NCBI GenBank assembly: GCA_038222225.1
Contig: JBBRHV010000001.1
Coordinates: 13,864 to 77,863, forward strand
Direction of reading: 5' to 3'
Origin: Candidatus Omnitrophota bacterium
Lineage (GTDB): Bacteria > Omnitrophota > Gorgyraeia > Zapsychrales > JANLHA01
DNA length: 64,000 nucleotides
Positions 3,671-63,100 of this stretch are shown here, one piece after another. The position numbers and the translations under genes are program-made. Position 1 is the first letter of the stretch, and the number at the start of each line of letters is the position of its first letter. A model generated the notes under the pieces. It was not told the origin of the DNA. It ran no database searches and was given only the letters and a program-made list of their open reading frames with translations.

Positions 3671-3700
3671 GATAAGGCTTATGGGGGGAGAAACCGATAG

Positions 3701-4558: not shown

Positions 4559-4576
4559 TTTTATAAGAGGGGAACT

Positions 4577-5458: not shown

Positions 5459-5586
5459 TCATCAAAAGGAGGGGCTTCTCCGGTCTGGTGCAGTCGATGT
5501 GGCAGTATTTGGTCTGATGAGTTCTTTGTTTTACCTCCAAAAAGAAAAAAGGGCCTGGCGGATTAGCGCACTTTTGTTTTGCGCGG

Positions 5587-5619
5587 AAGGATTCTTTTGT
5601 TTCAAAAGGAATCCTTTCG
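5587..5619 (+). terminator. Candidate hairpin downstream of tadC. The stem GGATTCTTTTG pairs with CAAAAGGAATCC with a one-base bulge and a TTT loop. It is followed only by TTTC.
   Basis: Near-perfect inverted repeat read directly. The weak U-tract lowers confidence that it is an intrinsic terminator. Confidence 0.35.
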
Positions 5620-5718
5620 GCAGAAGGCGCAATTTAAAGGTTTGCTGTTTGAGTAAAAAGGGGACCCTGTAATTAGAGAAGAGGGCTTGAGAAAAAACTG
5701 AAGTTTAAGCAAGATAAT

Positions 5719-5780
5719 TAATGTCCAAAAAATGAAAAATGTCCAATCAGAGAGATAAAAAAAGTTTTTAATGTCCAAAG
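5719..5780 (+). repeat. Three direct copies of (T)AATGTCCAA at 5719-5729, 5738-5747 and 5769-5780 in the leader of the giant gene. The reverse-complement TGGACA half-site recurs at 6011-6020, 6101-6107 and 6140-6146.
   Basis: Direct reading of the intergenic region. This is a candidate operator or iteron-like set of sites. Confidence 0.4.
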
Positions 5781-5920
5781 AATGTGTTAAATTCATGTGT
5801 TCCAGGGGGTTTTATTATATATAAGAAAACATTTATTTGTCCTCGAGAAAATAGTTTTCAAAAAGAACGCAACTCGCTAAAAACAAACAACTTGTTTCCA
5901 AAAAAAATCTTTGAAAAAAT

Positions 5921-5949
5921 TTGTTGCATATATTGACAGGTGGTATACT
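5921..5949 (+). promoter_or_regulatory. Sigma70-like promoter. The -35 is TTGTTG (5921-5926). A 17-bp spacer follows. The extended -10 is TGgTATACT (5941-5949).
   Basis: Sequence match to the TTGACA-17-TGnTATAAT consensus. It sits in an AT-rich intergenic region, 177 nt upstream of the giant-gene ATG. Confidence 0.45.
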
Positions 5950-6036
5950 TTAAACACCTAGCCCGGAGGAAAGTGAGTTAAATTTAAGAAACCGCTTTAC
6001 TTAAGTATTTTGGACAATTCAAAAAAATCTTCATAG

Positions 6037-6064
6037 ACCGCCTTTCCGGCGGTTTTCTTGTTTG
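6037..6064 (+). terminator. Intrinsic-terminator-like hairpin inside the 5' leader. Stem ACCGCC / GGCGGT, loop TTTCC, followed by TTTCTTGTTTG. It is a possible attenuator or the end of a roughly 100-nt leader or sRNA transcript.
   Basis: A GC-rich 6-bp stem plus a U-rich tract lie about 90 nt downstream of the predicted -10 and about 60 nt upstream of the ATG. Confidence 0.4.
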
Positions 6065-6125
6065 TAGAAATCCTTCCGGCTAAAAAACTAACGTACAATC
6101 TGGACATAAAAAAGTACCCACTTTT

Positions 6126-33100: not shown

Positions 33101-36100
33101 TACAAACGGAGCTGTTCTGTCTCAGGAGACTGTAGATATTTGGGCTCCGGTTTTAGCGCAAGTCCGTGTTAAAGAAGCGGAGTTGGCTCAGCAGGGGGGA
33201 ACCAGCGCGACCGTTTTGGGCAGCTCAGCATTGGCCCGTAGTGTCCAGTCATTGTTAACGGTCGGCATGCTCGTTCAGGGTATCTCCGGGTTTAATGTTG
33301 GCGCCGCAGAGGCCATTTCTGATTCAGTGAAAGTAGAAATGGCCGCAGATGCCCGTTTAAGAGACGAACTCCAGCGCGCGATGCAGGAGTTTGACAAAAT
33401 TGAACAAAAATATTCGCTTAAACGTGAATTTAAGCCAGGCCTACATATTATTGGTGATTACGATGATGCAAGGCCAACGCTAATCTTGATTCATGGTGGA
33501 TTCTCGAAACCGGATGCGTTCGAGAGATTTGCACCATACTTTAGAGAACAATTCAACATTGTTGTCTTTTCGTATAGCTCCGCGGATCGATTGGAACGTA
33601 CTGGAGAGATCTTCCGGGCAGATTATGAGAGAATGTTTAAAGGAAGTCGTTCGAAGAAGATTATTGTTACGCATTCATTCGGTAGTACGGCCTTTATGAG
33701 AACAATGCTCGATGCAAGCCCTGAATTTAAAGCCCAATTAAAGAAGACCGCTAAGGTGTTTATGTTGTCTCCGGCGTTCTTCGGATCTGCCCGTGTAGGA
33801 ATTGGCGGCAACTGGGTTGTTCAAGGCCAATTATGGCTGGGTTCGCTTGGTGGAGCGTTCGACTTTATGGAAGCGACGCGCAGACAGGCGCGATATAACG
33901 ATCCAAAGGGCAAGACTACGGCAGAATTATATAAACGATATCAAGAATTTAAGGATCTGTTTGATCAAGAAGTGGAAGTGATCGCTTTAACGAACGATTC
34001 TCATGCTCCGAAACGTCAGGAAAGTATTTTAGGTCAACGGTATCAGGAGATTATTGTTGAGGGCGGAACACTGTTACCGGCTGAAACAGATGTTGGACAT
34101 TCTGAGATCCTGCGTCGTAGAGATGTAGCAGAGACGATTATTAAGAAGGCTTTAGAAGATGATGCGAAGGGCGCCACCAATCCAGCTGTTTTGTCTGCTG
34201 ATACAAGGGCTCAGGAAGAAGGAGAACGCGGAATTGAAGTAGAGTTGCCTAATCTTCCGCAGCCGGATATAAATCCAACAATTCTGCCTGACACATCAAG
34301 TCAGCCGTTGCCGATTCAGCTTAATCCGGGCATGTTGCCGATCTATATATTAGGGAAAGCAGACACGTCAAGGCCGGTTCCGTTTGGACGGGATAGTGAA
34401 AGAGACTCTAAACAAACGCCTGTCATTCCTGCTACCGGAAGCCAGTTGCCGCTTCCTCTTATACCGGCAGATGGCGGAACTCCGGGTTCTGGTCCTTCGG
34501 GTACAGGATCAAGGGCCAATTCAACAGCATTTGTGGTCTTAGCGCGCAATATTTTGCCTTCTTCTAAGGACGAAGTGCGTATTGCACCCAATAATTTGAG
34601 TCAAACTCAAGGAGATTTTGAGATAACAGATATTCGAATGGCCAGTCGCAAGAATTGGACTGGTACCGGACTTAGTCCAACGGCAAGGGCATCTGCCGAC
34701 CACTCCACAGTGGTTCAGGCAGACGGAGTAGTAGAGTGGATCAGACTTACAGTTGGGACTGTTGTAGAAGTAGTGGTATTTGACAATGTGGCTAACTTGT
34801 TGAGCAACACTAGCTTAAGTGAAGTGGCGCTTGACGAGGGAGAAGCAGGTGTGTGGACTGTGCGCCTCGGCGCGAACCGCACGCGAGCAGTAGAAGGATA
34901 CGTTGTAGACGTAGAAGTAGTGGTAGCTGTAGAAGCAGAAGCACAAAGTGTGACTGACGGATTGAACTCGGCTATCTTAGGTGGCGTAACGACAGATAAG
35001 GGAGAAACAGAAGCACAGTCTGTACGCGCGAGCGTAGAAAATGTGCAACGTACTGGAATAGTTGTAAGCAACAGAAGCAGCAGTAGTATTAGAGGGAATC
35101 GTTCTTTGAGGGGTCATGATATCGCAGGTCGCGGCATTCTGGTTGTTGCTATTCAGTCTCGGGCTCTGCTTGAGGCCGGAGAAGGCATCTTGAATGTAGT
35201 AAGCGGCTTAGGTACCAAGATCCTGGTTAGTGCAGCTAAGATGGGCAGCAATGTTGTAACAGGTGTCAAACAGGGTTCTAGGAGTGTGGGTTCTGGTAAC
35301 AGAGCAGAGCATTCTAGTCCAGTTGTGATACCTAGAGTTCTTGGAGTACGTACTGGTAGCTCACGCAGTGTCAGTCGTAGATCCGGGAATCGAAATGCCG
35401 AACGTCATAACAGCAAGGTCTTTGGCCGCGCTGTCAGCCGTTTGGTGCGAAGCAGAAGTATTAGAAACATTATTGGAACAGCTGTAAGAAGTAGACGTAT
35501 TCGCTCTGTAGTAAGCCATAGTCGTGAGTCAGGCAGTTCTGCTGAGGGTGAATCCGCTGGATCTGATGCGGATGCTGATGCAGATGGTTCGCGAAGTGTG
35601 GATCAAATTAGTGGAAGTCATGTTGTAGAAGGAAATCGTTCTGTCATCAGTTTAGTAAGTGCGAGCCAAGAAGGAGAAGTGGCTCAAAATGAAGGTTATA
35701 GAGTGCGAAGCCTTCAGAGTATAACCGCCGAATCGAATGCTGCAACACTGGCAAGAGATCAAGCGGCTTCTAGCATTGATGAGAATAGTGTACGAAGAGA
35801 AGTTGTAGAAGGAAATCGCTCTGTCATCAGTTCAGTAAGTGCGGGCCAAGAAGGAGAATTGGCCCAAAATGCAGTTTATGAGGTGCGAAAACTGCGAAAT
35901 GTAACCGCCGAATCGAATGCTGTAACACTGGCAAAAGATCAAGCGGCTTCTGCTGTTACTGGTGATCACAATGTAGACGTCAATCGCTTGCAAGGTGTAG
36001 AAGGTGTAGGCGCTGTATATAGTGAAGTAGGAAGCTCACAGCTCGCAAGAGCTGATTCTGATAATCTTGGGTTGCGCAAAGAAGGAAGAGCGACTCAGGC

Positions 36101-39100
36101 TCGAGCCGTTTCTACCACAAGTAGTCCGGTTGCAACGACAGCTGGAACAGACTTCGGAGGAAGTGTAAAGAGAAGTCAGTTCTGGGTTTCTGACCGTGCG
36201 GCCGGATCCAATGTTAAAGCACGCATCATCCTGACCAGGATGACAGGTGCCTTGAGTACGTTTATCCTCACAATACTCAAAGGCGCTCAATCTATTCGTG
36301 CGCCGAACTTCGTTAATCCAACAGCATATATTAACTTTATGAAGAGCCTGATCGAGGGCGGTCTTTCTGCTGTCCAGACTGCCTATGATCAGGCTTCTTC
36401 ATTAATCAAAGGAGGGTCGCTATGGTTCTCGTTAACACACAACCAGATGTTGAATTCAAGTATTTCCTTGAAGTCCCAAAATCGCGCTGTACCTTCTGTT
36501 CAGGCCGCGAACGTACCAGTGGCAAGACAAAGCTTTATCTTGTCTTCCATGAACACCAACGCGTCTACACTCGCAACGGGCTCAGAGGAACCTGGGAAGA
36601 GCTCGAATCAGGAACCGGCAGACAGCTCAGAAACATCCTCAATGAAGCCTACACAGACGTCAGCATCCCGCGCTACAGTTCAGACAGGTATCAATCGCTC
36701 GTTAATTAAAGGAAAGCTGCTGGCCGTGGCGGCGTTATTTGTCTTTGCTCCAGCCACGGCCGTGGCTGGACCTGTTGTAGCAGCTGGGGCTGGAACAGCC
36801 GCAGTCGTAGCCGTTTCTTTGAGCACGCTTATTATTTTTGATGTCATTATTATAATTGGCATTGGCACTGGGTTCTTCCTGCTGTATCAGCTTGCGAAAA
36901 AGAATAATACTTCGTTTAGGGCGTATCTCAACACACCTCAAGTGAAAAAGGCTTTAGGGACTATTGCGGTAGGCGCTTTATTAAGTATTGTGCTCGCGCC
37001 TAAGCTGGTACTGCTTGTTGCCCCGGCATTAGGCGCAATGATCATCGGAGTTATCGGTTCATATTGGTTTGCGGCCGTTAACGGTATCTTGGCCGCGGTC
37101 TTCATGGCCATGAGCTTGAAGAGCGGAAAGCATCAAACTCAGTTCAAGGCCGCGGCTGCCTTCTTTGCCTTGATCGGATTAGCTAGCGCCTTGGCTGTTC
37201 TGCATGCGGCAGGCCTGGTGACGGGTGTGATCGTGGTGCTCTTTGGGTTTACTTTTGTAACCCTAGCGGTTTACCTCAAGGCAAACTTGTTTGGCGGCAT
37301 GCCGAAATTACCCGAGGCCGTTCAATTCCTGGAATCTTTGATTAGTCAGCTGGGAGAAACCGATAGATTGGCCATCAAAATTCGAACGGTACTCGACAGC
37401 AATGACCGCAAACAAATTCAGCGTCTGGCCAAGAGATTGCGCACCAGCCATTATAAAGCCTCGCAAAGCGATATCTATGCAAATCAGGAGAAGGGCGTTC
37501 ATGCGAAATTGAATGATTTCTTCAGCAAAATTCAGCAGATCGGTACGGCCCGCGAAATTTTAGAAGCATTCAACGATGTCTACAAAGTCATCAGCCAGAT
37601 CCATCCGTTGTTACCGCGAAATATGTTGCTTAAGGTCCTGGTCGCCGGACCGGTGTATCTGGTAGCAGCAGTCGTAGCCGTGATGTATTTCTTCGGCAAG
37701 GCGTTATATCTTTTCGTGGTTCGCATTGAGAATCTGATTAAGTTTATGCGCGATATGCAGGAAAGCAAAGTTACTCCTATCCCGGTCCTGGTTGAGTCGG
37801 CATTACTCCAGATTGAGAATAAAGGATTCTGGCATAAACAGAACGAAGATTTGAATGATTATAAATTCCAGCATCCGTTTATTTACAATATTATCTCCTT
37901 TGCACGAGGCCGTTTGTGGTTGCGTATTTTGTCAGGCACGGTGGTTGTCGTTGGCGTGAAGTTCTTATTTGGCGCGGTCAGCGCGCCGTTATTTGTGGTC
38001 GTGCTGGTCCTCATTGGCCATTCCTTACTCTTGAATATGGCCATGCAGTTGCCGCGTCAGGCACGAAAAATTGTTAACCGGGTGTTCGTTGATTACTTCG
38101 AAGCCAACAGCGAGTTGCGTGACAAACGAGGCGTTCCGACCATGTCGTTGGAGCGTATTTTAGCCGCAGCTGCCGATAACCATATTGATTTGGACCACTG
38201 GAAAGAGGATGAACGTATTATTGCGGCTTATAAGTCCGGCTATCTGTACGCCGAGACTGCGGGATCTCTTCTCAAGGATTTGGAAGCAGTATATGGCAGA
38301 GCCAGTCTGGGTAACCGTGCGATCCGCTTGCTTCTCCTGTATCCGGCGGCCATTGGGTTGTTCTTTATCAATTTGATCGTGCCGTTTGGTCTGATCGCTA
38401 AAGGGCTGAAAATTAATGCTAAAAATAAACGGCTGTTGGCGGTGGCGCAACAACTCGGGTCATTAAAGATGACCTTCTACTCCGGCTTGGTCGGCCTGCT
38501 TGCCATCAACTGGGAAATCAAGTGGGCGGTTGACCTATCCGAAATGATTGGCGGACCGACCGAAACGATCGTCACCACTTTTGAAGGACGCAATGACGAC
38601 CGCAGCGGAAGCCTTTTGAATTTAGGCGATTCGATGGTGAAGGGCGCGGAAGATTGGGCTAATAGCGAGCGTACTGAAAATCAGCGAATCGGGCTTGATT
38701 CCGTTGAGAAAGCCTTTGACAGATTTATGGGGCTCGAGTCAAAAACAGCAGCAGCTCCTGCGGATGCAGCAAAGACAGCTTCCGAGCCGGCTAAAACAGC
38801 AGCAGCTCCTGCAGATGCAGCAAAGACAGCTTCCGAGCCGGTCAAAACAGCAGCAGCTCCTGCAGATGCGGCCAAGAAAGCGAATGCTCAGGGCACAATA
38901 AAAGAAGAGGAGATTGTCAAAATTGATGAAGAGAGATTAACAAAGGCCTTATTGCGGGGGTCTCCGATAGGCACGGCTGAGATCTGGAAGAATTTCACAC
39001 ATCCAGATGAGGTTGCTTTAGTCATTGTGGCTTTGGCGGATGAGCAAAGCAGTTTAAATGTTCGTAAAGTCAGCATGGCAGCGGATAACGGCAGCGGCTT

Positions 39101-42100
39101 GTTTAAAATGAACGAGAAAGACTGGTTTGAAACAGTTGAAAAGATGGTGAATGAGGGCGCCCTGGAAGAACGGTTGTCGTATACTCACGTTTTAGATCCG
39201 AAGATGGCCACCAAAGTTGCGATGGCAAAATTAAATGATCAGTTTGAACTCCTTAAGAAAAACAATCTGATGAACGGTAGATCGCAGGAAGAGGTCCAGA
39301 AATTGGCCTTAGCGGCTTACCGCGTTGGAATGGATGCGGTTGTTAAGGAAGGAAAAGTTCCGGCTGAGGCGCAAAAATTTGTTGAGCAGGTCATGGCCAA
39401 GTATCGCCAGTCTCTTAAAAAGTTCCGCGCCGCAGACGGTTTGGAAGTTATCTATGGGCTGTCTAAACCCACGCCGGAGATTCCGGTCTTTACGCCATAC
39501 ACCAACGGCCTTGAACTCATCGGCATTCATGCTGGGTTGCAAGTTGCTGTTTCGGCTGATGCGAAAACCGTTGTCCTGGAAAAAGTTGAACAGCGGGATC
39601 AGGATGGAAAGAGCCGCAAGAATATGAGCTTTGCGACGCAGCTCACAGCAGATTTAAAAGTTGAGACGGCAGCGGACGGCACACGGACATTGATCCTTGA
39701 CCGCAGCCATTATGAGCTCAACGAGAATCAATTGCCTAACGCCTTCGTGCCGTTGATGGAGCAGTTTGGCGTCACGAGAATCATCATCCGCGGCAAACAG
39801 CCTCTTGAATATTTCAAAGAAAAAGACGGAACGATCAATTTCAAGCGGTTCCTGCAGACAGGGGCGACTGGTCAAACATACCGTGAAGCCGGCTATTATG
39901 GCACAAGCGTTGATATGAGCGACTGGACAGTCACAGTTCAGGTTCCGTTTGCATCTCCGGTCCGTACACCGGTTGCAGGAACCGTTGCGGAAGAACCGGT
40001 GCTGACAGCTAACGGCTGGAGAATTATGATCAAGGCCGAGAACAATATTGAAACAATTTTCTCGGACTTAGGTGAAGTTTCCGTCAAGGCCGGACAGGAA
40101 CTCAAGACCGGAGATATTTTAGGTCTGGCCGGGCAGTTCAAGACAGCCGTTAAAACAGAATATCATTTCCGCGCTCAAGTTGTGGAGGATGCTAAACCTG
40201 AACATAAGCATGTAAATCTTTTGAAAGAAAATGATACAGACTCTACAATCGAAAAGATCCGCCTGGCCTTTGTGAAGAATTTCAACCTCGATCAGGCGGA
40301 AGTTGATTTCTATACAGGCAAAACTGAAACCGCTGCCGAACGCCAAGCTAAAGCAGAACGTGCCATTGAAGAGAATAACGCGAACATTGAAAAGGGTCAG
40401 GCTGAAATTGAGAAACAAAAAATCGCTGTTAAGCAAGCCAACGATCCTGAACAGATCAGACGCAGAGAACAGAATGCGGTTGGGTTCTATTTATTCGGTA
40501 AACGAGATTGGGATTCCGCTAATCCGTTCGGAGGCGCAACCGCCAGCCGTACGATGTCTGATGCTTTATACGGCGCACCAGTCAACAAAGGTAATCTGTG
40601 GGTCGGGGTTGGGTTTAATTCCATTTACTCAACCGCAGTCGGCGGCCCGTCGATTAGCTTGGGAGATAGAACACTTTCGTTTGATTCTTCCTTCGGAATC
40701 AGCAACAACGCTTTAGGTCAGTGGGGTCAGATAGCCGGCCAGGCATTTGGGTTTGAAGATGTTTTGAGCAAGGGAGTGACCTCAACAGCTTTATGGGGTG
40801 TAACAGCCGCAGACATAACATTGTCGCTTCGTGACACATATTTCGATCAAAGAAATCGTTTACCGCAGTTCGGTGGCACAGAACTCTTTGATCAGGGATG
40901 GATCTTTAACAAGCCGTGGAAGCTGGCTTTGGATACATCAGAAGTTGTGCCGAACGCCCGCGCTATCAACGGTGAATGGGTCAGCAATCCATATCATCAT
41001 ACAGATTTACCGGCGGCACGCATCTTGGAGTACCCGAACAAACTCTTCAAGGGATTATTAACGTTTGATATTTTCACGTCTGATTTCTGGAAAGATAATC
41101 CGCTGCACAAACCGTATGAAGCTATCTGGCATGAAGGCTGGATGCAGCGTGAATGGAGCAAGAGCGCGTTTGAAAATCTTGACCAAAGCAGAATTTCGGC
41201 CTTCAGCCGTCTGTCGGGAAGTCCGGAAGAATTGATTTACGGCCGGGTGAGCTTGGACGGCAGAGAGCTTTCTTACACAGAAAACATGAAGGAATTCCCA
41301 TACCTCAGATATGATTCAGCTACAGGCGATTATGCGGTTCGTGAATTCTTTGAAAAGTCGCAGAACTGGAGACGCAATGTTGAGCCAGGCACATTGAACA
41401 TTGCCCTATCACGCGCGGCGATGTTGAATCTTCCGGACCTCAGACAACAGTTCATTTTAGGTCAGGCTATTGACGGATATACAGTGAATCCGCTCACCGG
41501 AAAAGTTTATGATCCGACGTTTGGATCCTTAGGCCGACCGATGCTGTTTGATTACTTCGGTGTTCCGAGTTTCGGAACAACACATTATCTTGACCGGGAA
41601 ACGGAAAAAATTCCCGGCGATCCGCGCTATGCATGGAATTACACCGATGACCAAGGCAACGTTAAGCAGGCTTACTCTTCATATTTGAGAACGCCTCTCG
41701 CCGGAGGAATCGATCTTGGTTTTGATGTTAAGCAAAACCCGGGTGAAACAGGATTGTTAGTTGTCTTTAATGCGGATGGGTCATTGAAAGAGACAAAGCG
41801 TTTGACCGAGGATCTAAGCAGCTTCTCTTATACAGCACTCACCACGGAGAATAAGAGCAAAACGACAATGAACATCCATAAGAAATTGACCTTAGATACT
41901 TACGAAAAGGCAAAAGACGGAACTTTCTCAGATCAGGCTAAACATACTGAAATTCCGTTTGCCGGATTGCAGGTGGTTGTTAAACATAAGGGCCTGACCA
42001 ACACTGTTTTTGAAGCTGAAAAAGGCCAGAAGACAACCGATACGGTTTGGGCCCTGGCAGACGGGAAATTTGTGAAAGGTGAGATCGCGGTCGTGGTTCC

Positions 42101-45100: not shown

Positions 45101-48100
45101 CGCATATTATCAGTTCAACGATCGCACCCAGGTCAAGCTTGAAATGGGTGTTAGCGGTTCCGGCCGCACAACAGATGCAGAGCTTACGGCGATCGACACA
45201 TTCACCGGAAAGCAAATTTTCAAGGATACCGTTAAGATCAATAACACCGACTGGTTTGATTATCAGAAGATGACCTTTACGCATGCCTTGAATAAAAATT
45301 TGTCGCTCCGCTTCTCCGGAAGCCGTGAATTTGAACAGGGCGCCATGGGCATTGCCGAAGATGTGACATCCTATTTTGGCACAATCGGGGCTGATTGGAA
45401 ATTCGGCGATCTTCTCATGAAGGACGACAAACTTCTGATTTCAGCGGATTATGGGTTTAACGCCAACCGTGAAGCCGGCGATCGCACTCGTCTCATGCTG
45501 CAGTATCAGCAATTCTATACCTCTGTTGGCATGTTCGGCGAGGCACTGTATTACAATGCCGGCATCAAGTTAACGGATTCCTTAGTCGCTGAATTCGGCC
45601 AGCAGAAGACCGGCGATCTTTACGGACGTTTAGGATATGATCACAGCGGTTTGCGTTGGGATGCCGGTCTTACTGGTCAGGGCCAGGTCAGCAGCGGATT
45701 AAAAGTAGACCTTTTGAATATGCCTGGATTCCTGACCAAGCTCTTTAAGATCGAAACACCGGAAAACTTCAAGATGCCGGAACTGCATACCCGCAAACTT
45801 CAGACATTACAGGAGAAGATCATCTTCGCTCCGTTGGCAGAGGCACAGCATCAGACGGTCCAGATGAACGTTAATAAGACGGAAGCCACCAAAGACATCG
45901 CTAAATATACAACGCTTGTCAACGCAGTGAATGGACATGATGTGATTCCCGGCCAGCATGCCATTGCCGCTGACATCAAGATTTTAACGGATCCGAATAT
46001 TTCAGCCGAGGCGATGCCGCTGTACGGTCCGTCACCATTTGGATTAACACAGGCGGATAAGACGTATACAATGCGCTTTGTTGATCTGACACCAGAACAG
46101 CTGACCAAATACGGCATCGGCAAATATCCGAAAGAAGAAAGATTCTACATCCGCAGCACTTGGATCGATGCGCAAGGCCGTACGCAATCATTCAGTCAGG
46201 AATTTGCCGCGCAAGGCCTGGTGATCTTAACCGAGAACATTGACAAGTTAAGCGTTGAGACTCAGAAGGCGCTGGGCACATACCGCAACATTATTCCGGT
46301 CAAGCTCACCAACGCCGGTTATGAAGCGACCAAGGACGCACGCTTCGGAATGGTCGCCGGGCAGACGATCACAGCTGAAGATTTCGCTCTTTGGCTAGAT
46401 AACACTGTTGATAATGGAACGATCTCAAGCCGCGTGATGAGCCAGGTTGATCCGAAGACCGGCGAACCGGCACGTCAGCTGTTCCTGGCCAAAGACGGCA
46501 AAGTCACATCCTTAGACCTTACGAAGGAAGGGTATGATGCGATCGATAAATACACTGAGAACAAAATTTTGGTTCCTGTGGAAAGCGGATTAACAGTATA
46601 TTTGACCGGTGCAGAAGCACTTCAGTGGATCTTGGATGGCAAGTTGATTTATATGAAAAATATAGATCCTAAGATTGACGCTACACATGTTTTAGCAACG
46701 GCTGATGGGAAATTAGTCGGTTACGGTGATGCCATTGTGAAAGGAAAGTATTTGGTTCCGGAAATCGAAGCGTTTATGAAGGACAAGGTCTTGGTTCCGT
46801 TAAAGGGCGTCCGGTCTTCAACAGCTTATTTAACCGGAGCAGAAGCACTTCAGTGGATCTTGGACGGCAAACTAATCTACATTGAAAATACAGATCCTAA
46901 TATTGATGCTACACATGTCTTGGCAACAGCTGATGGAGAGCTGGTCGGTTACGGAAATGCTTTGATTGACGCCGGTTATATGATTCCGGAAGTTGAAGAA
47001 TTCATGAAAGACAAGGTTGGAGTTTTGACCTCCGAAGGAAGCCGTTACTTGACAGTTGACCAGTTTGAAGCGCAGAAAGAGGCTTTGGATGCTGCTTATC
47101 GTCCGAATGCAGAAGGCAAGATGATCCTTTCAGTCCCGGCTCCGAAGCAGACAAAGTTTAGAGTAACCACTTTCGAATCTGAAGGAGAAAAATATGTCGG
47201 CGTCAAGCTTCCTACAGAGATCGAAAAGAGAAATAAGGCGATGGATGACGGGCGGGCATATTTTGAGAACGGCCAGTTCATTATCCAGGATGCCGGCAAT
47301 GAGGCCAATCGTATCGTCGGCACCATAGCCGGAGAAAAATTGCTTGAACCGGCAGCTTATGTCACAAAGGCGACCGTGCCGCAGATGAAGTATAAAGAGG
47401 GAGAACAGGTTTTTGTTAAGGGTAAGGGTTATGCATATTATGAGAAAACATTGACCGGGAAATATGAGCCGACCGCAAAAGTGATCTACAACGCCGAGAA
47501 AGACGCAAAGGTTCCGGGTTATCTACCGCTCAAGAGAGTTGTCGTGATCTTACCGAACAGAGCAGCGCAGATTGAAGGGGAACTCCTCTTGAACAAATTC
47601 GGAGCAGTGGAAATTAGCTCGATCCAAAAGAGATATTATTTTGTTATCGGTGAAGACAAAGTAGGCGCCTATGTTCCAGTTGATGAATTGGTCAACCGAC
47701 GCTCAGAATTTATAAGTAAAGTTCAAGAGATCGTTCGATATGGCGACACCTTAGAGCGAATCTATTTGGATGCCAGCGCAGCTGACGGTCAGGTGGATGA
47801 AAACGATAAAGTCACGATTGTACGCAGCAACAGCCGTACTGACATTTACCGATTAGGACAATATACTATCGACGCCAGTGGAAAACTCACCTTAACAGGT
47901 GATCCGATCGGCGAAGACCTTCTTCTTGCTCCTGAGGCGGATGGTTCGATTAAGGCTCAATTGATATATGGAATTCAGCCGTTCGTGATCCCGGCTGCGG
48001 AAGTTAAAAACAACACATATCATTTGAACAGAGATTTCTATTATCAGAGAGAAACCATCAATGTCTATAATGCTGAAGACAAGCAAATCCGACAGATCAT

Positions 48101-51100: not shown

Positions 51101-54100
51101 AGAAGATTATCCGAAAGGAACCAATGGACGCAACTGGCGGGCAAGGATGATTTTTGCCATTATTATAGGTATGAAGCTCATTGCGGGTCTTTATATGTTC
51201 AAGTGGTTATCTGTACCAGTTGGCATTGCCTGGAAAGGCACTGTGCTCTTGCCGGCAGTTCTGGGCGGAGGCACGTTGATCGGCGGAAACTTATTGATTG
51301 TGGGTCTGTTTGGAGTCGTTTTTGCTGGGATATTCCTGCTGGATATTTTTGCCTATTTCTATCTGGTCGAGACGGTGCTTGGGACTTGGATCGCCCGTTA
51401 TCAAGGGATCAATCGCGTGCATAGCTGGAGACGCAACTCGCTGAGCGAAGGCGCTTGGATGCTCTCTCTGTTTGGATTGCTCAAATGGGTCTTGCCGGTC
51501 AACGCCGCTCTTATTCAGCAGTATCTTTTGCTTGGTATTGGATATGTTGTTAAGAGCAGCACTGTCATTGCCTTCTTCAGTACACCGGTAGGCGGGGTCG
51601 TTATGGTTGTTGGTGTGGTCATCTTGCTATTGGCTTTAAGGGCTATTGTAAACGCAATTTTAAGTTCAATGGGATTTGAACGCATTGGGGGCGATACGTT
51701 TGTAGAAATGTTTGGTAAAGCGCAGAAACAATTTGCTAATAAAATTCTTCCGTCTTCGGTGGTCCGGCCGGATGGCACCAGGGCGGCATTGACAGCGCGT
51801 GAAAAGTTTGTGGCCTGGGTCAAGGCGTGGAACATGATCGTTCATCAGATGAGAGAAGATGATATTATCGGCGATGAAGAGGAGAAGAGATTAAGCTATA
51901 AGTTCACAGGAGAGTCTGAAGAGGATTTCTTGGAGATCACAGGTAAGATCACAGGGCCGGATCTGACGGTTACACCTAAAGACGGACGCGCACGCAAGCG
52001 CCTGCAGCATTTCATCTCTACCTTATTTATGGATATGGAGCAGACCCCGATTTGGGAGAGAATGTATTTGTTCTCTGCTGTGTGTCCAATCTTTGAAGAG
52101 CCGAATATGTATCCGTTTAAAGATAAGTCGGTTGGGGTTTACGATGCTATTAATGAAGTATACAAGACAGGAAAGACGTTCTTGACGCATATTATTTCAA
52201 AGGTTCCGCATCAGTGGCAGTATTTTATTCAGCGCATGGAAGACAAATTGCAGATTTTTACAGAAGAAATGACTGAAAAAGCAAAGACGAATCCGAAGAT
52301 CACTCAAGACATGATCGATGAGGCTGTCAGTCGTAAGCGGGATGATATTGCGGCCATGAAGGCGCTTGGTATGGGTCAGAGGCTGGTGCTTAAGGATACC
52401 GAGATGATCAATGAGGTCCGGGCCTGGGTCAGCTACCGCTTCCAGCCGTTCTCCCGTACAGCGCGCGGGATCATGACGTATCATCAAATGTATGAGTTCC
52501 AGGCTAAGGTCAATTATCCGACCGCAGAAGCTCTGAATGCCACACAGAAGATCCGGGGTGAGAAGCCGGAAGAAAAGAAGAAGAGTTACGTGCAGCGCAT
52601 TATAGACATTGTTAATGAGAAATTTGAATTTGTGGTTGGGGATTTTGTTTACGGGGGTCATCGGAATGGTACAGACGGATCTCCTGAAGCCATGCTCAGA
52701 GATGATATGCATGCGCTTATGGCCAAGTTCCCGGGAGGCATTAAGCTTGTGTATTGTGCAGCTCCAGATAAAAAGAACCCTAATTATGCACCAGTAAAAG
52801 TTGAGTATTTTGCAGGTGTTCCGACACAGGAAGATCGGGATGCCGGTGTGATTATGCATGAGTATGAGGATGAATATACTCATCAAATCACCGGATACTT
52901 GAAACAGGTCCGCGCCTTTAATATTCATAGTTATTTCTTTGCCGGCCAAGGAAAACCGGTCAACCAGAATAACATGTTCCGTTTCACCAAAGGTGAGATC
53001 ACGCAGATGATGGATATGAACCAGGATATGTATCTGGAGGAGACGTTTAAGGCGCCAAGCATGATGGAAGAGTTCCGTAAAGATCCTAAGATCGCGATCA
53101 TAGGGTTCCCTGAAGATATCTTTACAGATTACTTCAGCCCTGCCGGTGCTGTCCACGCCTTCGGAGATCGGACATTTGTCACCATGGTTCAGAGGGTCTT
53201 AGAGTTTATGGGGATCCGCTTCCATTACGGGCATCCGGACTTTGTCCGTACCAATGCCTTTAGACAGCTGGGCTTATTGAGCGCGCCGTGGGTGAACGAA
53301 GACATTTTTGGCGCGTATAAAGCCATGCTTTATGGGCAGAAAGTGATCAATCGCGAAACCATGCAGGCGGGTAAAGCGCGGGAAGCTATGTATATTGCTT
53401 TGATCGGTATTTCAGAAAAATTCGGCGCCGGCGGATCTGAACAGCCGTTGACATATATTGTTCAGCTCCTTAACCGTTCAGGCATTTTCGGATTTGCGCA
53501 AGGATTTATGCATGTGGTCGCGTCCATGGGTTATTTCTTGCGCAAGGAAGTCATCGTTCTGACAAATAACAACTATATTTTGATCCTCCTGTTCTTAGGG
53601 GTGAGCGCGTTTGCGGCCTTCCCGAACGAGTTGACATGGGGTCTGATTGGTTTATTGATGTCACAGGCCATTACCTCTACCGGATGGGCTCAGGTCTGTA
53701 TCGAAGATGGGTTGATTTTAGGAACTATTCGATTTATAAAATTGTTCCCGTCTTTGGCCATGACATACATGTCTTTGATTTATAACGCTTTTGCTCCGGG
53801 AAGCAGAAAAGCGTATGTGAATCAAGCCGGCTATGTGGCAACAGGTCGGCCTCCGGGGCTTCAGCACATGTATCCGTTCAGGCCGACGAACCATATTCTT
53901 GTTAAGTTAAGGGTCATTGCCGGCGATCTTTATGGACATGTAAACTTGAGCGGATATGCCTGGGTGGTTCCGATGGTCGCGATCTTAGTGAGCGGCCTTA
54001 TCTTGTGGCTGAATCCTGGTCAGGTGTATTCATTATTCTTTATTATGTTAATCCTGTCCAGTATGTTTGCTCCGTTTATCCTGAGCCCTGGTTCTACACC

Positions 54101-57100
54101 GATCACCATGGGTATCCGCCGTTGGTATAAACAGCATTTCACGGATGATGTTCCGAGATTCTTTGAGAAGATCGATAGTTTTGGGAAGGAGGACACCATT
54201 AAAGATGTCCTATTTTCTGGGAAAACCAAACCTGAGCCAGCTGGTTTTGAAATGAACAAAGAGTTCAAGAAAAACGGAGTACAGCATGTAACAATTAATG
54301 GCCAGGATCTTACAGTCGGAAAAGAGGTTTTAACGGTAATGGATGTAAACGGAGTTTCTGAACCGACCGGCTATAAGGTTAAGGAAATATTCAAGAATAA
54401 GGTGGTTCTCGAAAAAGGAAAAGAAGATTTTATTGTACACAGAATGAATGCTTATTATGGAGCCGCCAGAATAGTAATAGTGGCAGTTGTAATAGGAGCG
54501 GTGTGGCTTATTCCGGGCAATTACCTTTATATAGGAATTATTCTCTTCAGCATTTTCTACCTGGGGTTAGGCTTTGTTTCAGATGCCAAGAATCTTTGGG
54601 CTAAGATCTTAAAACTCAAAAATATTCAGAAGATTCTGAACCATCCAAAAGTTAAAAAGATCCGGGATGATCAAGCAAAGAAAGCCAAAGAGCGTAAGGA
54701 TGAGCTAGCAAACGGCAAAGAGCGCTCAACAGCTGAAAAGGTTCGGGATTTTCTGACATTACCGAAAGGTAAAACTTTACGGGATATTATTAATCTTTAT
54801 ATGACAGGCATCATTGTCATGTTGATGTTGACCGCGTTGGGGGTTGTTACATCGGTTATTGTTGCCGCTCCATATACGGCCGGGTTGTTTATTCGTGCTC
54901 AGATCAAGTTCTTACGTCTGCCGTCTTTGGCGAAGTTTGTCGGCTGGTCTTCTCTTGTTATTTGGCTAAGTAAGCTGGCTGTTCCGGCAATCTTATTATA
55001 CACAGGCGGGTTTGCGGCATTTTTGGCCGTGGTTGGGTTTGAGGTTATCATCGGATCCTTCGCATCAGGGCTGTTCACCGGAGAGGCCGAGGATGCACAA
55101 TTGGCCTTAGATATTCGTTCGCTCCATGAGGAAAAATCTCAGAGTGTAAAGGGTACAAACAGCGCGGTCTTGGCTAATCAGAAGAATGACGGCAAGAAAG
55201 ACCTCGCCCGCACTGAAGACGGCGAGGCATTGAATGACGGACAAGAAGCTTTCTTAAGAACATTGATCGATCAATATCAGGATCAGATCGCCGCGGGTGA
55301 GCCGGTCGATGCTGCGGTCATTGAGAAAATTGCCGCTCTCCTCAGAGAGCAAGGGTATGTTCATGTTGCCAATGCTCTTCTGAGTAAAACCGTTGTCCGC
55401 GGGCCTCCGTCATTGTTTACTGATTTTGAAGAAAGCATCCATAGAGTCCTTCTGGGTACTATCACAGGGACTCACATCATCATCAATCCGATGATCCTTT
55501 CTCATCCGGTGGAATTAGCCCGCACGATCATTCATGAAGCGGGTGCTTCTGCCGGGTTGTCCCATAACGAAAATAAAGAACTCGAAAAATTAGCGCATCC
55601 GCTTTTGGTGGCGATCGACGGCCTCTCAGCAACAGGGAAGTCCGCCGTTAGCGGTTATTTAAGCAAAGACCTCAAATTTGTCAATATCTCCATCGGGTTG
55701 ATCTACCGTTTCTTCGCCGCATTTATCAAACAATCCAATTTTGCGGTGCTCAGCGATCTCGAATTTGAGCAGCTCCGCGAGATGGCTGAAAAGATCAGCT
55801 ATGTGAAGAATGAAAACGGCGAGTGGAATTTTGTGGTTAACGGTCAGGTGATCAACAGCAATGATCCGGCGTACTTTAATCCGGAAATTGAGAAAGCACT
55901 CAGCGAGCATCTCTCCAAAAAACTCCATCCGTTAGTCCTTCCGGTGGCCAGAAGAGTTATCCGTCAGGTTTTGGCCAGCGGTGAGAACGTTGTTGTTGAG
56001 GGTAGGATTGCCTGTGATTATATCGCTCCATTTGCTGATGTGAAATTGAATATTGTTGCAGAATATTCTGTACGCGCGCAGAGACGGATGGAGCAGCGCA
56101 TCGCGCAGCATGGCATAGAGAAAGCCTATATGGATGCCATAGGCACCAAGAACGCGGCAGAATACCAGCAACGGGTGAGAATGGTCGCCCATGAAATTTA
56201 TGAAAAAAGTGGGCATAAGCCCGGGAATGACCTGGCCAATTGGGCGGAGGCGGAAAAGAGGGTCAGAGCTGAAATGGCTTCTAAGATCGAAGAGGGAGCA
56301 AGGACAGTGGAGGCGGAAAAGAGGGTCAAAGCTGAATTGGCTGCCAAGATTGAAGAAGGATTGCGGAGACGCGATAGAAAAGATCAGGAACATTTACCGA
56401 AAGCGCCAGTTCAGCCCGGTAATGTTGTTGAGATCGACACAACGCATGCCCATGGTTTGGATGAGACCATTAGCAAGGTTCAGAAAGTTATTTCTCAGGC
56501 CTATCTCAGCGGACGAACAGGCCTCAGCCCGCAAGTCGCAGAGGTGACGCAGCAATTAGCATCTTTGAAGGCAGGCGAAGCTATTCCAGAAAGCTTGAAA
56601 CAGGCCATTTTGAAGGTCTTGCCGGTGATCGGTGAATTGAGCGAAGCCAAGATCGTTCACACGTTCCGCAATCTTGAATATCTGCACAGATTAGCAGCGC
56701 AGGATTTTGATTATTTCTACGATCACTTAAGCGAGCAAGAACGCGCCACGGTTGAACGGGCAGAATATGTGGCAGCGTTACAGAGCATCTATAAAGCGTA
56801 TGCAGCGTTAAGCGCACAGGAAAAAGAAGCGTTATGGCTGACTGTCGCGCTTCATGACATCGGATATATCCGTGTTAAGGACCATACCCACATGAGAGTC
56901 GGGGCTGAGATGGCTCGCCCGATTTTGGAAAACATCGGATTGAACCATGAGCTGATCGACCTTGTGGTCTTTACAATCAGCCAGCATGGTTCTATCGGAA
57001 ATTTGGCCCTGGGTGAAACAACTCCGAAGACAATGTTAAAGGCTTTAAGCGCCGTCAGCCCGGCTCTTCGGGCTGGACGTGCCCGGTTTGTCCGCCTCAT

Positions 57101-60100
57101 GAACAGCATGGATCTTTGCGGGTGGCATGTTGAAGAAAGCCGCTTGACGCTTTATTGGCAGAAGATTTTTGAACAATTCAGCTCAATCGCTCAATTAGAA
57201 GCCGCGGCACAGGCTGGAAATTATCATACACATCGTTTAGAGAAGTTCGCCCGCACAGAATTCGAAAAACAAGCCACACCGGAAGATCTTGAGAGATTAA
57301 ATCAGACTATCGAAAAATTAGTTTCTGAAGATGAGCGAGAACAATTCTATGCATGGCTCAATTCAGATATGTACATGGATTATTATGAGCCTATTTTCTG
57401 GGGCTTAAATCAAGGTGATCCGTCATATGTATCGCTGGTTAAGTTATTAAGGACATATTTCCACATTACAACTTCATTGAACGGGAAAATGCCAGAGCTT
57501 CGTCTCTGTGAGATCACGACAACCTTCCGGGAAATTTCTTCAAGTATGAAACGGCAGTATATTATTAAAGAACTGAAGGCGATTTTGGCGCTGATGCCCG
57601 AGCAGTTCACATTGAGTGATGCTACGGTCCATTTGTCAGGCAATAACTGGGTCCGGTTCTTTGGAATTCCGCTGATTCTGAGGGGCCAGTGTCTTGTGAT
57701 CGACTTCCAGTATCTTCACTTCCGTGTTTTATTGTTCAAGCTGCGCGAAAGAGTTGGTCTCAAGCGCGGGTTCTCCCGTAAAACCGGATGGCAGGTTGAA
57801 GAAGCGGCCATGGATTTCACAGGCCAGCAGCCGCTTGTTGAATCAACATCGGAAACAGCGATGGAACGCGCGCAAAAAGCGCATACGGTTATCAGCTGGA
57901 TCTACAGCAGCCATGAAGCCTGCAAGGCATTTGTGCAGTATCTTCGCGGATATGCTGTTGGGCACACATACCGCAATCGATTGATGCCGTTGTATTTTAC
58001 TGTTTATAATTTCTTGGCAGGCCGGGCATTGAACGACCGGAGGGTCTTGTCTGCGGTCGAAGCAGATTTGTTAAAAGGCAATGTCACAGTTCATCATCAC
58101 GCATGGTTCGGAAGCGATGATGTGGCGGTATCCAGAAGTAAACATGGTTCAGCGGTCAATGTGGCTCAGCCAGCTAAACGCACATTCCGTATTTTGGTTA
58201 TGGGTTGTGCCGAGAAACCGAATGGGCGCGGATCGTTGGATGTCCTGAAAGAGATCCTGGACAGGCTGCCGAACCGGTCTGAATATAATATTGAGATCGT
58301 CGGAAATGACATCGCCTTCCAGGAAGAGTTTTACGCATTCAATGACAAAGGGACATGTTTAGGAAAGCGCCATACGCGTTTTGAATTTGATGAAAACGGC
58401 GTTTTTGTTGACCCGAATTCCGGGATCAGGTATGTCCGTATTGATATTACGAAACCGGAAAACAATCTGTTAAGTGGAGAATTTACGCCGGACAGCGGGT
58501 ATGATGTTGTCATCAACTCAAGAATTGCAGTTCAATATGGGGATTACCCGGATAAAGTCGAGAGCATCAGAAAGAATTCATTGAAGATTATTAATGAAGG
58601 CGGGCTGCTCCTGTTTGATACGCAGGATACTGACCATGCCGAAGTTTGGACAAAGGGAAACAACGGCGAAGCAATTCAAATTGGGTTTGCTGTTCCGTAT
58701 ATTGATATTTGGTCAGAGAGCAAGCGCGTTGAGAAGATCCTGGCTCGTATCTATGATGTCAATGGGGAAGATGCCGAACTTGTTCGCCAGGCATTCCACA
58801 TGAGGCTCGCATTTGCCGGGACACAAGGTTTAGTATTCGCGAGGAGCATCCTGGCTCAATTCTTGGGGATCTTTGGGGAGCAGCCGATTGCAATTGCGGC
58901 ATTCCTGTTGCGCGGGATCAGTATGGAAGCTGTTCAAGAGGTTTTTGGAGAGCAAACAGCGGCACAGATCGCGGCGATCAATGGGCTTATTCCTGCAGCC
59001 GATGAAGTCGTGATCTCAAGGCAAGCGTTGTGGGCATTTGAGAATTTCAACAGCCTTGAGCATGTGGAGATCCTTCCGGCCAACGTCGGCGTATTGGAGA
59101 ACCGTCAGATGTTGTATCGTGACGGGTTGTATCAGATTGAAGCTGCTACCGTCGGTGAAAAAATGGTTTTGATTATAAGCAAAGTTACGCCGGAGCAAAT
59201 CACATCCAAGATCATTGCGTTGCATGGTGAATATGCGGTTAAATATCAGAAAATGATCGGTGCGACAAACAGCGCGGTTCTGTCAAGCCAGAATGATGAG
59301 AGCAGCGCCAAGGTCATGGATGCCGATGCATGGGCACTTGATGCTAAGAACGTGTTTGAAGATGCTATCCGTAGTCTGATCGCTAAAGCCAGCCAGATCA
59401 TTCGCTGGTTAAAGATCAGACTCTATGTGACAGACCGTAGCGACAAAGTAGTGGCTAAAGAACAGCAAAGAGTTGAAGAGATGCCGTTAGCCGCAGCCGA
59501 ACCTCAGAGACCGAATCGCGTGGGTTCAGTGGTTCATACGTCAAGTTCGCATGAACAGAATCCGAACATGGCTGTTTGGAGACAGTATTTCGAAGGCAAA
59601 CTTGCGGCAGGTACAAACGCAGCTGTTTCCGCGCCTGACCGCATGGGCAAAACAACTGCCGATTATGAAGCTGAATTTGCTGCACGGTTCAATGATGCAA
59701 CCGACGCTGCATGGCAACAATTCCGCGCCGCGGTTGAAGCCAGCCCGGCTGATTATGCTCCTGTCTGGGTGAAGATTTTAGAGAAGGCAAAAGCAGGTAA
59801 GTCGGTGGAAACCGGTAAAGTGGTTGAGTTTGGAAAAACAGTTGAGTTGGTTGAGTTGGGCAAAGCAGTTGAGTGGGCTGGATCAAATGCAGCGGTTAAT
59901 TTGGTAAAGGCAGAAGATGTAATCGTTCGGTTTGACCGGTTCGCATTCTGGGTTTATGGCGCTACTCAATGGCTGAAGATCGCGCTTCATGTGACCGATT
60001 ACAGCGATCGGGCCGTGGCTAAAGAACAGGTTCGCGTGGAAGAGTCCCAGCTTCAACCGACCGGTCCGCCGGTTGGCTCCATGAATGTTAATCGTTTGAG

Positions 60101-63100
60101 TCGTAAAGGTTCAGTGGTTCATACATCAAGCTCTGATGTGCAGAACCCGAACCTGCCGGTTTGGAGAGGTTATTTCGAAGGCAAACTCTCCGCAAGCACT
60201 AACGCCGCCGTTCTTTCATCTGACCGCATGGGCAAAACCTCCGTTGATTATGAAGCTGAATTTGTTGCACGGTTCAATGATACAACCAACGCTGCATGGC
60301 AGGAATTCCGCGCCGCGGTTGAAGCTCATCCGGCAGAATATTCTTCTGTCTGGACAAAGATCGCAGAAAAAGCAAAAGCAGCCAAGGCGCAGGCAGAAAA
60401 GCCGGTTGAGTCGAAAGGAACAGTTCAAACGGTTGAGTTGGGAACGGCAAAAACTCTAAACGCTGCGGTATTATCCCGCCGTAATTTCATTCAGAGCATC
60501 GCGGTTGCAGGTGCTGCGATTTTAGCCGGCGGATGCGCTTCGCCTACGGAAAAAATGCTTCGCGGATGGTCCAATCTTTCCATTGAAGAGCAGCGCAAAC
60601 AGATCGAGGGTATGAAGGCGATCGCCAGTGAATTTAAGGCCAAGGATACCCGTGAATTTCTAACAGAACCAGCTTTGAGGTTCCTGGAGACTCAAGCCAA
60701 GATTTCACGTAAAGACGCACTGTCTATTCGCATTCTATTCACGTCTGATGAGATGTCATCGGTAATCGGGGTGTCGACTGACGCAGGAACGATGACGCGC
60801 GCGAAATTGGGAGAATTAAGGAATCGTTTCTTAAGACATGTTCCGTCAATGAGGGCTGAGTGGCAGGAAGCCTTTGATCTGATGGAACAAAATATTTTTG
60901 ACGGTCGGGATGTGGTGGTTGTTCTCAGGGAAAGTTTATTTGATACAGAGGCCTTGGATGACTTTAGAATTGCTCAGGTTGTTCACGAAGCTGTGCATTG
61001 GGCGCAATTCACGTTCCGCAGTAAAAAGATGGGCCTGTCCTTCGGGAGGGGTGCTGAAGAATATCTCGAGCTTGAAATTGAGAAGGAAGCCTACGCGCTG
61101 CAGATGCTGTATTTGGCAGGGCGCGGAAAAACCTGGGCAACAATAGCCGTATTTTTCGCCGGAGATGCTCCGAGCGGAAAGGCGGAGGTTGACGGGCCTT
61201 TGGCCGCGGAATTTGAACAGACCCGGTTTGGGCACGGATTGAAACAAATTTGGGATACGCGCGTTGCGCCGAAACTTTCGTCGGGTAAAGCGGTTGAGTC
61301 GGAACCGACCAATTCCGCGGTAAGCACATTTGTAGTACAAACCAAAAGTCCGGTGCTAGGTACACAGGGACGAAACCAAACCGTCAAAGACGGTCAGTTG
61401 TTCAATGTCACGCAGCGTTGGCTAGAGCCGCTTGTTGATGAAGGGGCGACAACAGGCGATTCGCTTGAAGCCAACGCTGCGGTGACGAACTATTTTGAGC
61501 GTTCTTCTGACAGCATGACCTTCTCAGGAAAAGGGCGAGTTGTTCCGGCAAGAACGCGACAGCTTCCGCAGACAATTGAAGAAGATATGCTGCCGGCCTT
61601 GCCGGCCTCAAGTTTACCGGAAAATACGCCGGTGCGCGAGCTTCCGGCAATCCCGAGCTTACCAATAAACATTCAGTTGATCGTGCCGGTGTTTGGCGGC
61701 GCTAACGGAAATGGAAATGGAAAAAGAAGAGGTGGTCCGTATTCGATGATCGCCTTTGCCAGGACATTGGGCGGTTCACGCGCGAATTTAAGAGCTCCGC
61801 GCAGCTTGAATGCTGATAATTTTGGAAAACGACATTTGGTCAATTCGGCTCTAAGAGCCTCAGGCCGTAATTTTGCTTCAACAGGTTTGAGTGACGTGGC
61901 GCATGGCTCAAATGGCGACGATGCTAATAGCGCTGTTACAAATAGCGACGAAGATTCGGATGCAGACGCTGCCACGGGTGCGTCCAACGTCGAAGGTGTG
62001 CGCGCGGTAAGAGAGCGGCGGTTCAATGTGGCTTGGTTGAGTTCACGTTCATTTGTCGCTGAACATAAGGATGGAACATGGGCTATTGTTTTTGAGGACG
62101 ATCTATTTTATGGCGTGGTCGGCAACACGATGCTCGACACTGTTAAATTCCTCCAGAGTGCCGGATTCAAGAACGCGATGGTGGTGGATGCGGGCAGCCG
62201 CGGAGCGTTTACCGCCAAAGGAAAAGAAGGGGCTCTCTTTAGTGAATCGCGCGTTCCGGGCAAGGGGCCGTACACATATTTGAATGTCCTGTCGAACCAT
62301 GATTTCCCGAAGACTCCCGCACCGTCACAGAAACCGGTCGGGAAAAATCATGCCGTACTCCATGGCGGTCAAAACGAGAAGCGAAAATCAGCTGCTGCAT
62401 TCAGCAAGGGCGCAGCAGTCATATCCGGGACCAACGCTGCTTCACACAATCATCACCGGAATAAAGGGTCAAAGGATAAAAAGGGGATTCAGGCTAGGGC
62501 AGTTTCAGATAAGAGATCATCAGCGAATAATCCTCGAAACATGGGTCGCCGCAACTTTATCCGAAATGCACTGTTGGCGGGCGGGGCCGCGGGACTTGGG
62601 TTTGGCGCCTGGTTCTCCTTGCGAGGACGCGCGTTTGATCCTCTGTTCTGGAAGGCCTTTGGTTTGAAGAAGGATCTCGCGCTGTTAATAAAGTATTTGG
62701 AACAGGTCGGCGAATGGTTGCGTTATAACGGTTATGCGCACATGGATGTTGTTGAAGCGTATCTTCAGGCCGTCCGTGAAAAAGCCGAAGTCATTGATCT
62801 CAATATCGGAAGTCAGGTTTTTGGAAAGGCCGAGGATCCTGTTAGCGGAGACATTCATATTGAATTGAATATCGGGTCATTGTTCCGTATGGCCGAAGCG
62901 GTTCAGACCATTTCTAAAATCGCCCAGCGTGAGCAGGGGGCTGGCGCCGCAAACGATACGACCATGTTTGTGCAGGTGATTGTTGAATCGTTGGTCCGTG
63001 AAGCCTGGGGTTATGACCTGATGGTGCGCAACCGTCCCGGACGCAAGCAGTTCGTGAACGTCTTTAATGATCTCCGGCTAAAGATTCAGGAAGCGGACCG

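Follow-up and report, generated by a model that had tools for sequence, protein, structure and literature searches.

Giant genes of Omnitrophota have been described as encoding C39 peptidase N-termini and many transmembrane segments, with a locus resembling the type II secretion system (T2SS) upstream; most of them, but not all, carry a divergent SecA DEAD-like domain (bioRxiv 10.1101/2023.11.21.568195). Fuzzy tandems, one or more per gene, have been reported in 86% of long Omnitrophota genes and were not considered the result of recent expansion (bioRxiv 10.64898/2026.06.07.730766). Here we discuss the tandem repeats of a giant gene from a Candidatus Omnitrophota bacterium (assembly GCA_038222225.1, contig JBBRHV010000001.1, forward strand, positions 13,864 to 77,863). 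This stretch of 64,000 nucleotides is referred to below as the window, and positions are counted from its first base. As read from the sequence, the window carries most of an Omnitrophota-type giant gene. The best explanation overall, which we hold to be likely, is that at least six independent and mutually unrelated in-frame tandem duplications, of three kinds and mostly old, have taken place within this gene.

In-frame tandem repeats of the giant gene

A frame without a stop codon extends from 6084 to 63998 on the forward strand (19,305 codons) and continues beyond the 3′-end of the window. Its sole relative among GTDB species representatives belongs to the Omnitrophota metagenome-assembled genome (MAG) RA.bin146 (JAKLFA01; L002; 67% identity at the amino acid [aa] level), while a metagenome scan yielded a more distant one (L003; 42% aa) on a 1.17-Mb metagenome contig. 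The frame is uninterrupted in these two as well, over 21.8 kb (L002) and 21.6 kb (L003).

Tandem Repeats Finder (TRF) reported nine rows for the real giant gene, with scores of 85-542; each of 20 codon-shuffled versions of the gene gave none to two rows, the top score being 58. The repeat periods (12, 27, 51, 63, 180, 228, and 564/585 bp) are all multiples of three and all lie within the giant frame, and self-matches by blastn and blastp agree with the TRF repeats. The five repeats listed by the first-pass annotation are therefore present at their places, in frame and beyond chance, and their assignment to in-frame tandem duplication of the slippage or unequal-recombination type is upheld by the shuffled controls and by the periods. 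The description of the copies as exact or near-exact proved wrong for the large repeats, which are 72-86% identical at the nucleotide (nt) level; over all five the identities between copies run from 72% to 97%, and none is exact. Nor do the repeats form a family, as had been proposed, since the units are unrelated to one another by self-BLASTP. The only exact tandem in the window lies outside the giant gene, at 2869-2952, where a 42-bp unit occurs twice and encodes PGICEQYVDPLIIQ twice within an upstream open reading frame (ORF; 14-3265, 1,083 aa, no Pfam match).

Divergence between copies was estimated by the Nei-Gojobori method as synonymous divergence (dS) and omega, the ratio of nonsynonymous (dN) to synonymous divergence (Table 1). 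The duplications differ widely in age, those behind the two largest repeats being old. For the 228-bp and 564/585-bp pairs omega points to purifying selection on both copies, so that these are retained functional domains and not fresh copies. Only two sets of copies are near-identical, those of the 12-bp array (97%) and copies 1-2 of the 51-bp array (94%). The duplications had been called recent; the dS of the two largest pairs, their low omega, and the occurrence of the 180-bp duplication in another species all contradict this.

Table 1. Features of the window discussed in the text. "New" marks repeats absent from the first-pass annotation; dS and omega are between copies unless stated otherwise.
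Feature	Position	Strand	dS	omega	Remarks
T2SS-F/TadBC-like genes (two)	3701-4558 and 4577-5458	+			Just upstream of the giant gene; Pfam T2SSF
Giant gene	6126-63998	+			Likely start ATG 6126; 3′-end beyond the window
12-bp array, x3.8	24454-24499	+			97% identity; encodes (GAAP)n in an Ala/Pro/Gly linker
18- and 24-bp arrays, weaker (new)	24478-24573	+			Adjoin the 12-bp array
Module A	32637-33113	+			Diverged old copy, ~34-43% aa; BLASTP E 4e-17 at ~34% aa
Island of low dS and low GC3	34650-36710 (approx.); L002 ~5,950-7,957	+	0.25	0.73	Window versus L002, 649 codons, dN 0.18; contains the 180-bp repeat
Rest of compared gene			2.1	0.11	Window versus L002, 3,655 codons, dN 0.22
180-bp unit, copy 1	35622-35801	+			60 aa, VVEGNRSVISLVSASQEGE...
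180-bp unit, copy 2	35802-35981	+	0.15-0.23	0.9-1.25	Versus copy 1
Nested ORF	36422-36709; L002 7669-7956	+			95 codons, +2 frame; inside the giant gene at the 3′-end of the island
51-bp array, x3	38742-38894	+	0.15	0.18	dS and omega for copies 1-2; encodes KTAAAPADAAKTASEPA; copies 2 and 3 have 94% and 75% identity to copy 1
76-aa unit U0 (new)	46365-46592	+			Oldest; ~20-24% aa to U1 and U2
76-aa unit U1	46593-46820	+			228 bp
76-aa unit U2	46821-47039	+	1.39	0.11	Versus U1: 72% nt, 70% aa
63-bp array, x2 (new)	56244-56369 (also given as 56246-56360)	+	0.48	0.33	88% nt; encodes AEAEKRVRAEMASKIEEG
Module B	59268-59894	+			Repeat core 59403-59867
27-bp repeats (new)	59809-59874	+			Tail of module B
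Module C	59886-60473	+	0.86	0.29	Tandem copy of B (78% nt, 62% aa); core 59967-60449

The 228-bp pair, 77-82% identical by local alignment, encodes two copies of a 76-aa unit that opens with (T)xYLTxAEAxxW, and a profile hidden Markov model (HMM) of the unit finds exactly three in the window. With the same model RA.bin146 has two (U0 and U1), U2 being without a counterpart there. Either of U1 and U2 is only 36-41% identical at the aa level to U1 of RA.bin146 and thus more distant from it than the two are from each other; U2 therefore arose after the split of the two lineages or was lost from RA.bin146.

The largest repeat encodes a helical module of ~190 aa. Modules B and C are offset by 564 bp at the start and by 585 bp after a 7-codon indel, and module A is a distant third copy 26 kb upstream of this tandem pair, which confirms the older relative noted near 32730-33060. 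Module A is bracketed by TN[SG]AVL motifs, is followed by an alpha/beta-hydrolase domain, and is conserved in RA.bin146. The module core reads WLKxxLxVTDRSD ... RVGSVVHxSSS..QDP..VWRxYFEGK ... GKT..DY..EF ... WQxFR. Among 1.84 billion representatives there were 10 matches, about eight of them genuine, and one of the matches carries two tandem half-modules. P0007 and P0008 were rejected as relatives, being FN3 arrays that match the low-complexity part of the profile. An AlphaFold2 prediction from 12 sequences has a mean pLDDT of 72, with four confident helices at residues 100-183 (pLDDT ~72-98 in 10-residue blocks). The module is accordingly defined here as a rare family with a conserved core that tends to occur in tandem.

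Among the shorter repeats, the 51-bp array lies directly after the second transmembrane cluster and before the SLT and M23 domains; at this site RA.bin146 has a different Pro/Ala/Lys linker in which the 17-aa repeat is absent. The 63-bp array, at the C-terminal edge of DUF2934, is rich in Glu, Lys, Arg, and Ala and its product is probably helical. No credible family emerged for the units, the modules, or the island discussed below when Pfam was scanned permissively. A word-indexed protein search with the 180/51-bp region, the B and C modules, and the 76-aa units gave no matches, a result that does not imply uniqueness since the RA.bin146 ortholog was equally unreached by it. Neither the 228-bp nor the B/C repeats have a recognizable counterpart in L003, which also shows none at the 12-bp and 63-bp sites.

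Taken together the tandem repeats make up ~4% of the coding sequence (CDS). No Pfam family occurs twice in the giant gene, and chunked self-BLASTP reveals essentially no internal similarity in the 19,305 aa beyond the repeats listed. The gene has grown mainly by the addition of unrelated modules and not by repeat expansion, with a slow trickle of local duplications.

The 180-bp pair, its island, and a nested reading frame

The 180-bp copies are 86% identical over 158 nt (35614-35771 versus 35794-35951) and 77% identical over the full 180 nt, corresponding to 63% at the aa level. RA.bin146 also has two copies at this site (L002 nt 6890-7081 and 7082-7249, period 192), with 93-95% identity between them. 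In the first 108 nt of the unit the identity is 95% within L002, 84% within the window, and 75-81% between the genomes. Copies that are closer within than between genomes indicate gene conversion or re-duplication, at least in the lineage of RA.bin146, and we infer that the duplication is shared or ancestral and has been partly homogenized in RA.bin146. Such a pair in two species is a warning against dating duplications by the identity of their copies alone.

The 180-bp repeat lies in an unusual part of the gene. In a sliding ortholog scan of the window against L002 the proportion of synonymous differences (pS) is 0.47-0.93 almost everywhere and 0.06-0.36 in an island of about 2 kb. Synonymous divergence in the island is ~8 times below that of the rest of the gene, dN being similar, and codon position 2 changes most. 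The GC content at third codon positions (GC3) is 0.26-0.46 in the island of both genomes, against backgrounds of ~0.5 and 0.65. The giant-frame product here is rich in Ser, Val, Ala, Gly, and Arg. The omega of ~1 between the 180-bp copies is explained by their location within this island. An RNA-level cause of the island was rejected, there being no Rfam match and folding-energy z-scores being ordinary (mean −0.30 in the island, −0.44 elsewhere), as was alternative-frame coding across the whole island, the other frames being full of stops except at 36,389-36,706. No terminal inverted or direct repeats were found at its borders. The low dS may be due to recent exchange or co-conversion, to conversion between paralogs, or to synonymous constraint.

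At the 3′-end of the island a second ORF is nested out of frame within the giant gene. It is preceded, seven bases upstream, by the Shine-Dalgarno sequence AAAGGAGG (36407-36414), and further upstream by a hairpin (36339-36402, −41 kcal/mol, z −4.5) that is largely conserved in L002. Its product contains MVLVNTQPDVEFK, where the giant-frame peptide contains SLTHNQMLNSSISLK. Both frames are open in both genomes. The alignment of the nested ORF with its L002 ortholog is free of gaps, and of the 36 differences 6, 2, and 28 are at codon positions 1, 2, and 3, respectively (p 8e-8); over the same bases omega is 0.08 in the nested frame and 1.75 in the giant frame. This pattern and the low omega lead us to regard the nested ORF as very probably a real, coding gene. 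The single pointer to a family is a match to Endonuclease_7 (PF02945; E 0.13, 12.6 bits), below the cut-off of 23.6, and no homologs were found in NCBIfam, PHROGs, PADLOC, PDB sequences, phage genomes, or viral contigs. The nested gene is more unusual than the repeats, and together with the island it raises the interest of the locus somewhat.

The stop codon of the nested ORF coincides with the point at which the two genomes cease to align. A terminator-like hairpin follows directly upon the stop, the positions noted here being 36716-36733 and 36690-36730. The giant-frame sequence beyond the stop, KGKLLAVAALFVFAPATAVAG, resembles a signal peptide or N-terminal anchor and is preceded by AAGGA and an in-frame GTG; this may be a sign of an internal start from which the downstream portion of the giant gene is translated as well. 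From the nested ORF onward, window positions 36,710-38,913 and L002 positions 7,957-8,561 cannot be aligned: the window has ~2.2 kb with ~8 hydrophobic helices, RA.bin146 ~0.6 kb with ~3. RA.bin146 also has private insertions at L002 aa 1539-1848 and 3086-3312. Overall, L002 is collinear with 29.9-46.8 kb of the window in blocks of 52-72% aa identity interrupted by lineage-specific insertions, and on this comparison the giant gene evolves by the gain and loss of large in-frame blocks.

Origin of the repeats

We propose that the repeats arose in three ways. The short-period arrays (12, 51, 63, and 27 bp) would most likely be products of replication slippage; they encode Ala/Pro-rich or Glu/Lys/Arg/Ala-rich, helix-like stretches, and their only plausible effect would be to lengthen or shorten a spacer locally, each step adding or removing between a few and 17 residues. 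The whole-domain duplications, that is the three 76-aa units and the ~190-aa module pair with its distant copy, would most likely have come about by unequal recombination. The 60-aa unit appears to have been duplicated in a segment without protein-level constraint in the giant frame (omega ~1), the duplication being shared and followed by gene conversion or re-duplication. Plausibly the 51-bp Ala/Pro/Lys linker is the only repeat that sets a spacer length. As such the repeats are ordinary products of a general phenomenon that is already documented, and are of little interest in themselves.

Some points weigh against this explanation. Values of dS on units of 17-190 codons carry a wide error, and since gene conversion resets dS they date the last homogenization and not the duplication. 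There is a single informative comparator, L002, which does not reach the 12-bp, 63-bp, or B/C sites, and copy number is compared between two species. The membrane side of each repeat is assigned from neighboring domains and a crude hydropathy scan. Finally, the 180-bp unit may have been duplicated independently at the same site in both lineages, which is less parsimonious.

The first-pass annotation had read the repeats as recent, ongoing expansions of modules, whose copy number might differ from strain to strain and might adjust how long an extracellular structure becomes. The 12-bp array and the first two 51-bp copies are indeed young, at two of the three comparable sites (228 bp and 51 bp) the two species have different copy numbers, and the 51-bp linker separates a transmembrane cluster from SLT and M23, both peptidoglycan-hydrolase domains. 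The large repeats, with dS of 0.86-1.39 and omega of 0.11-0.29, are not of this kind; the 180-bp duplication is common to both species, the units are unrelated, and several repeats adjoin cytoplasmic-type enzyme domains (GNAT, cytidylate kinase, HD), so that by their neighbors they lie in probably cytoplasmic segments. In a protein with over 19,000 residues, repeats that amount to ~4%, each step altering the total length by at most ~1%, cannot tune that length meaningfully, and we consider ongoing expansion unlikely. Far less likely still is that a short-read assembler collapsed or expanded the repeats, a general hazard of which the first-pass annotation had warned and in favor of which nothing was found: where copies exceed a read in length they differ by 12-28%, enough for reads to be placed uniquely, the near-identical arrays (46-153 bp) are below typical read length, two copies of the 180-bp unit are also seen in a MAG that was assembled independently, and nowhere is the reading frame broken. 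A phase-variable simple-sequence contingency locus was rejected, all units being multiples of three within an ORF.

Two further explanations concern the 180-bp pair. It may not be a protein module at all but a DNA-level feature of a recently exchanged 2-kb cassette comprising the island and the nested gene. Such a selfish cassette (34,650-36,710), sitting in a linker-coding stretch, would have passed between species, by exchange or co-conversion, at a much later date than the remainder of the gene; the nested gene, independently translated and maybe encoding a degenerate nuclease of the His-Me/Endo VII type, would keep the host frame open, and break and repair or co-conversion around it would drive the duplication and homogenization of the repeat. 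The low dS of the island at similar dN, its deviating GC3 in both genomes, the omega of ~1 in the giant frame over the repeat, the purifying selection on the nested gene with its stop exactly at the homology breakpoint, and the near identity of the copies in L002 are all in line with this, as is the weak similarity to Endonuclease_7. The nuclease assignment is, however, below threshold and without homologs in the collections searched, the island lacks terminal repeats at its borders, its low dS may equally reflect paralog conversion or synonymous constraint, and the comparison is of two genomes; the cassette is a tentative idea that we think rather doubtful. The many nonsynonymous differences between the 180-bp copies (omega ~1) would also be expected if they, or the 228-bp pair, were the template and variable repeats of a diversity-generating retroelement or the target of other directed hypermutation. 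The mismatches are not adenine-specific (among others A>G 5, G>A 5, and T>C 3 in the 180-bp pair, and similar in the 228-bp pair), and such unbiased spectra effectively exclude this mechanism; moreover both copies lie inside the ORF, and by Pfam neither the product of the giant gene nor any of the three ORFs upstream has a reverse-transcriptase domain.

Domain content and likeness to known systems

The Pfam domains found are all in the giant frame: C39 peptidase near the N-terminus (residues 224-307, E 1.5e-8), GNAT, SLT (weak), M23, cytidylate kinase, DUF2934, HD, alpha/beta-hydrolase (weak), and 1,3-beta-glucan synthase. The last of these is an FKS-type match (51975-53603, E 1.8e-50) within a 12-helix membrane cluster of this bacterial gene, and the region is 42-52% conserved in L003. 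A crude hydropathy scan gave 26 hydrophobic segments, which probably span the membrane, in four clusters (aa 68-552, 10214-10767, 14956-16317, and 19241); the soluble stretches between them reach ~9,600 residues. No SecA DEAD-like domain was matched by Pfam at E ≤ 0.01 in the 19,305 aa, though one may be encoded past the end of the window. Positions 3170-5941 are matched at 100% identity by a 2.8-kb Logan contig from SRR19962012.

The motif [GA]TN[SAP]AV[LS] occurs 24 times in the giant protein, where 4.25 are expected (maximum 10 in 200 shuffles), for example at nt 32637, 33105, 34179, 55158, 59268, 59886, 60201, 60459, and 63738. It flanks modules A, B, and C as well as the alpha/beta-hydrolase domain, occurs eight times in L002 and not in L003, and is present in the module-bearing fragments P0001, P0002, and P0004 from other MAGs. 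It may mark linkers between modules or sites of proteolytic processing, perhaps for the C39 domain. The motif, the nested gene, and the island all bear on whether giant genes yield one polypeptide or several products.

The gene resembles the non-Dockerin giant genes of West-Roberts et al. (2023) in being a giant single ORF with an N-terminal C39 domain, many transmembrane segments, and peptidoglycan-hydrolase domains, in having T2SS-like genes directly upstream, and in having its nearest relative in Omnitrophota. It differs from them in that 1,3-beta-glucan synthase is found instead of a SecA DEAD-like domain. With the fuzzy tandems (bioRxiv 10.64898/2026.06.07.730766) the repeats share in-frame, diverged copies in a gene of more than 10,000 codons, with synonymous and tolerated nonsynonymous changes, and the dS values found here match the statement that these are not recent large-scale expansions. 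The present gene is at the low end, with ~4% of its CDS in tandems and no Pfam domain repeated, and it fits the "multi-enzyme" class of that study and not the "tandem-repeat scaffold." What is new here beyond that study is a cross-species case of a shared duplication with homogenization.

Repeat-built giant adhesins and Dockerin/TSP3-type giant proteins are likewise very long bacterial proteins with tandem copies, but in these tens of copies of one domain set the length, whereas the present gene has two to four copies of each unit and is otherwise nonrepetitive. Concerted evolution of tandem repeats is known from genes for bacterial surface proteins such as the streptococcal alpha C and M proteins and Bap/Esp. 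The 180-bp copies are similar to these in being closer within than between genomes; they differ in that there are two copies, diverged by 5-16%, with omega ~1, and nothing was found that points to phase or antigenic variation. Flexible linkers rich in Ala and Pro are familiar from the lipoyl domains of E2 and from TonB. The 51-bp and 12-bp arrays, of the AAPA/KTAAAP type and located between a membrane anchor and catalytic domains, are like them by composition alone.

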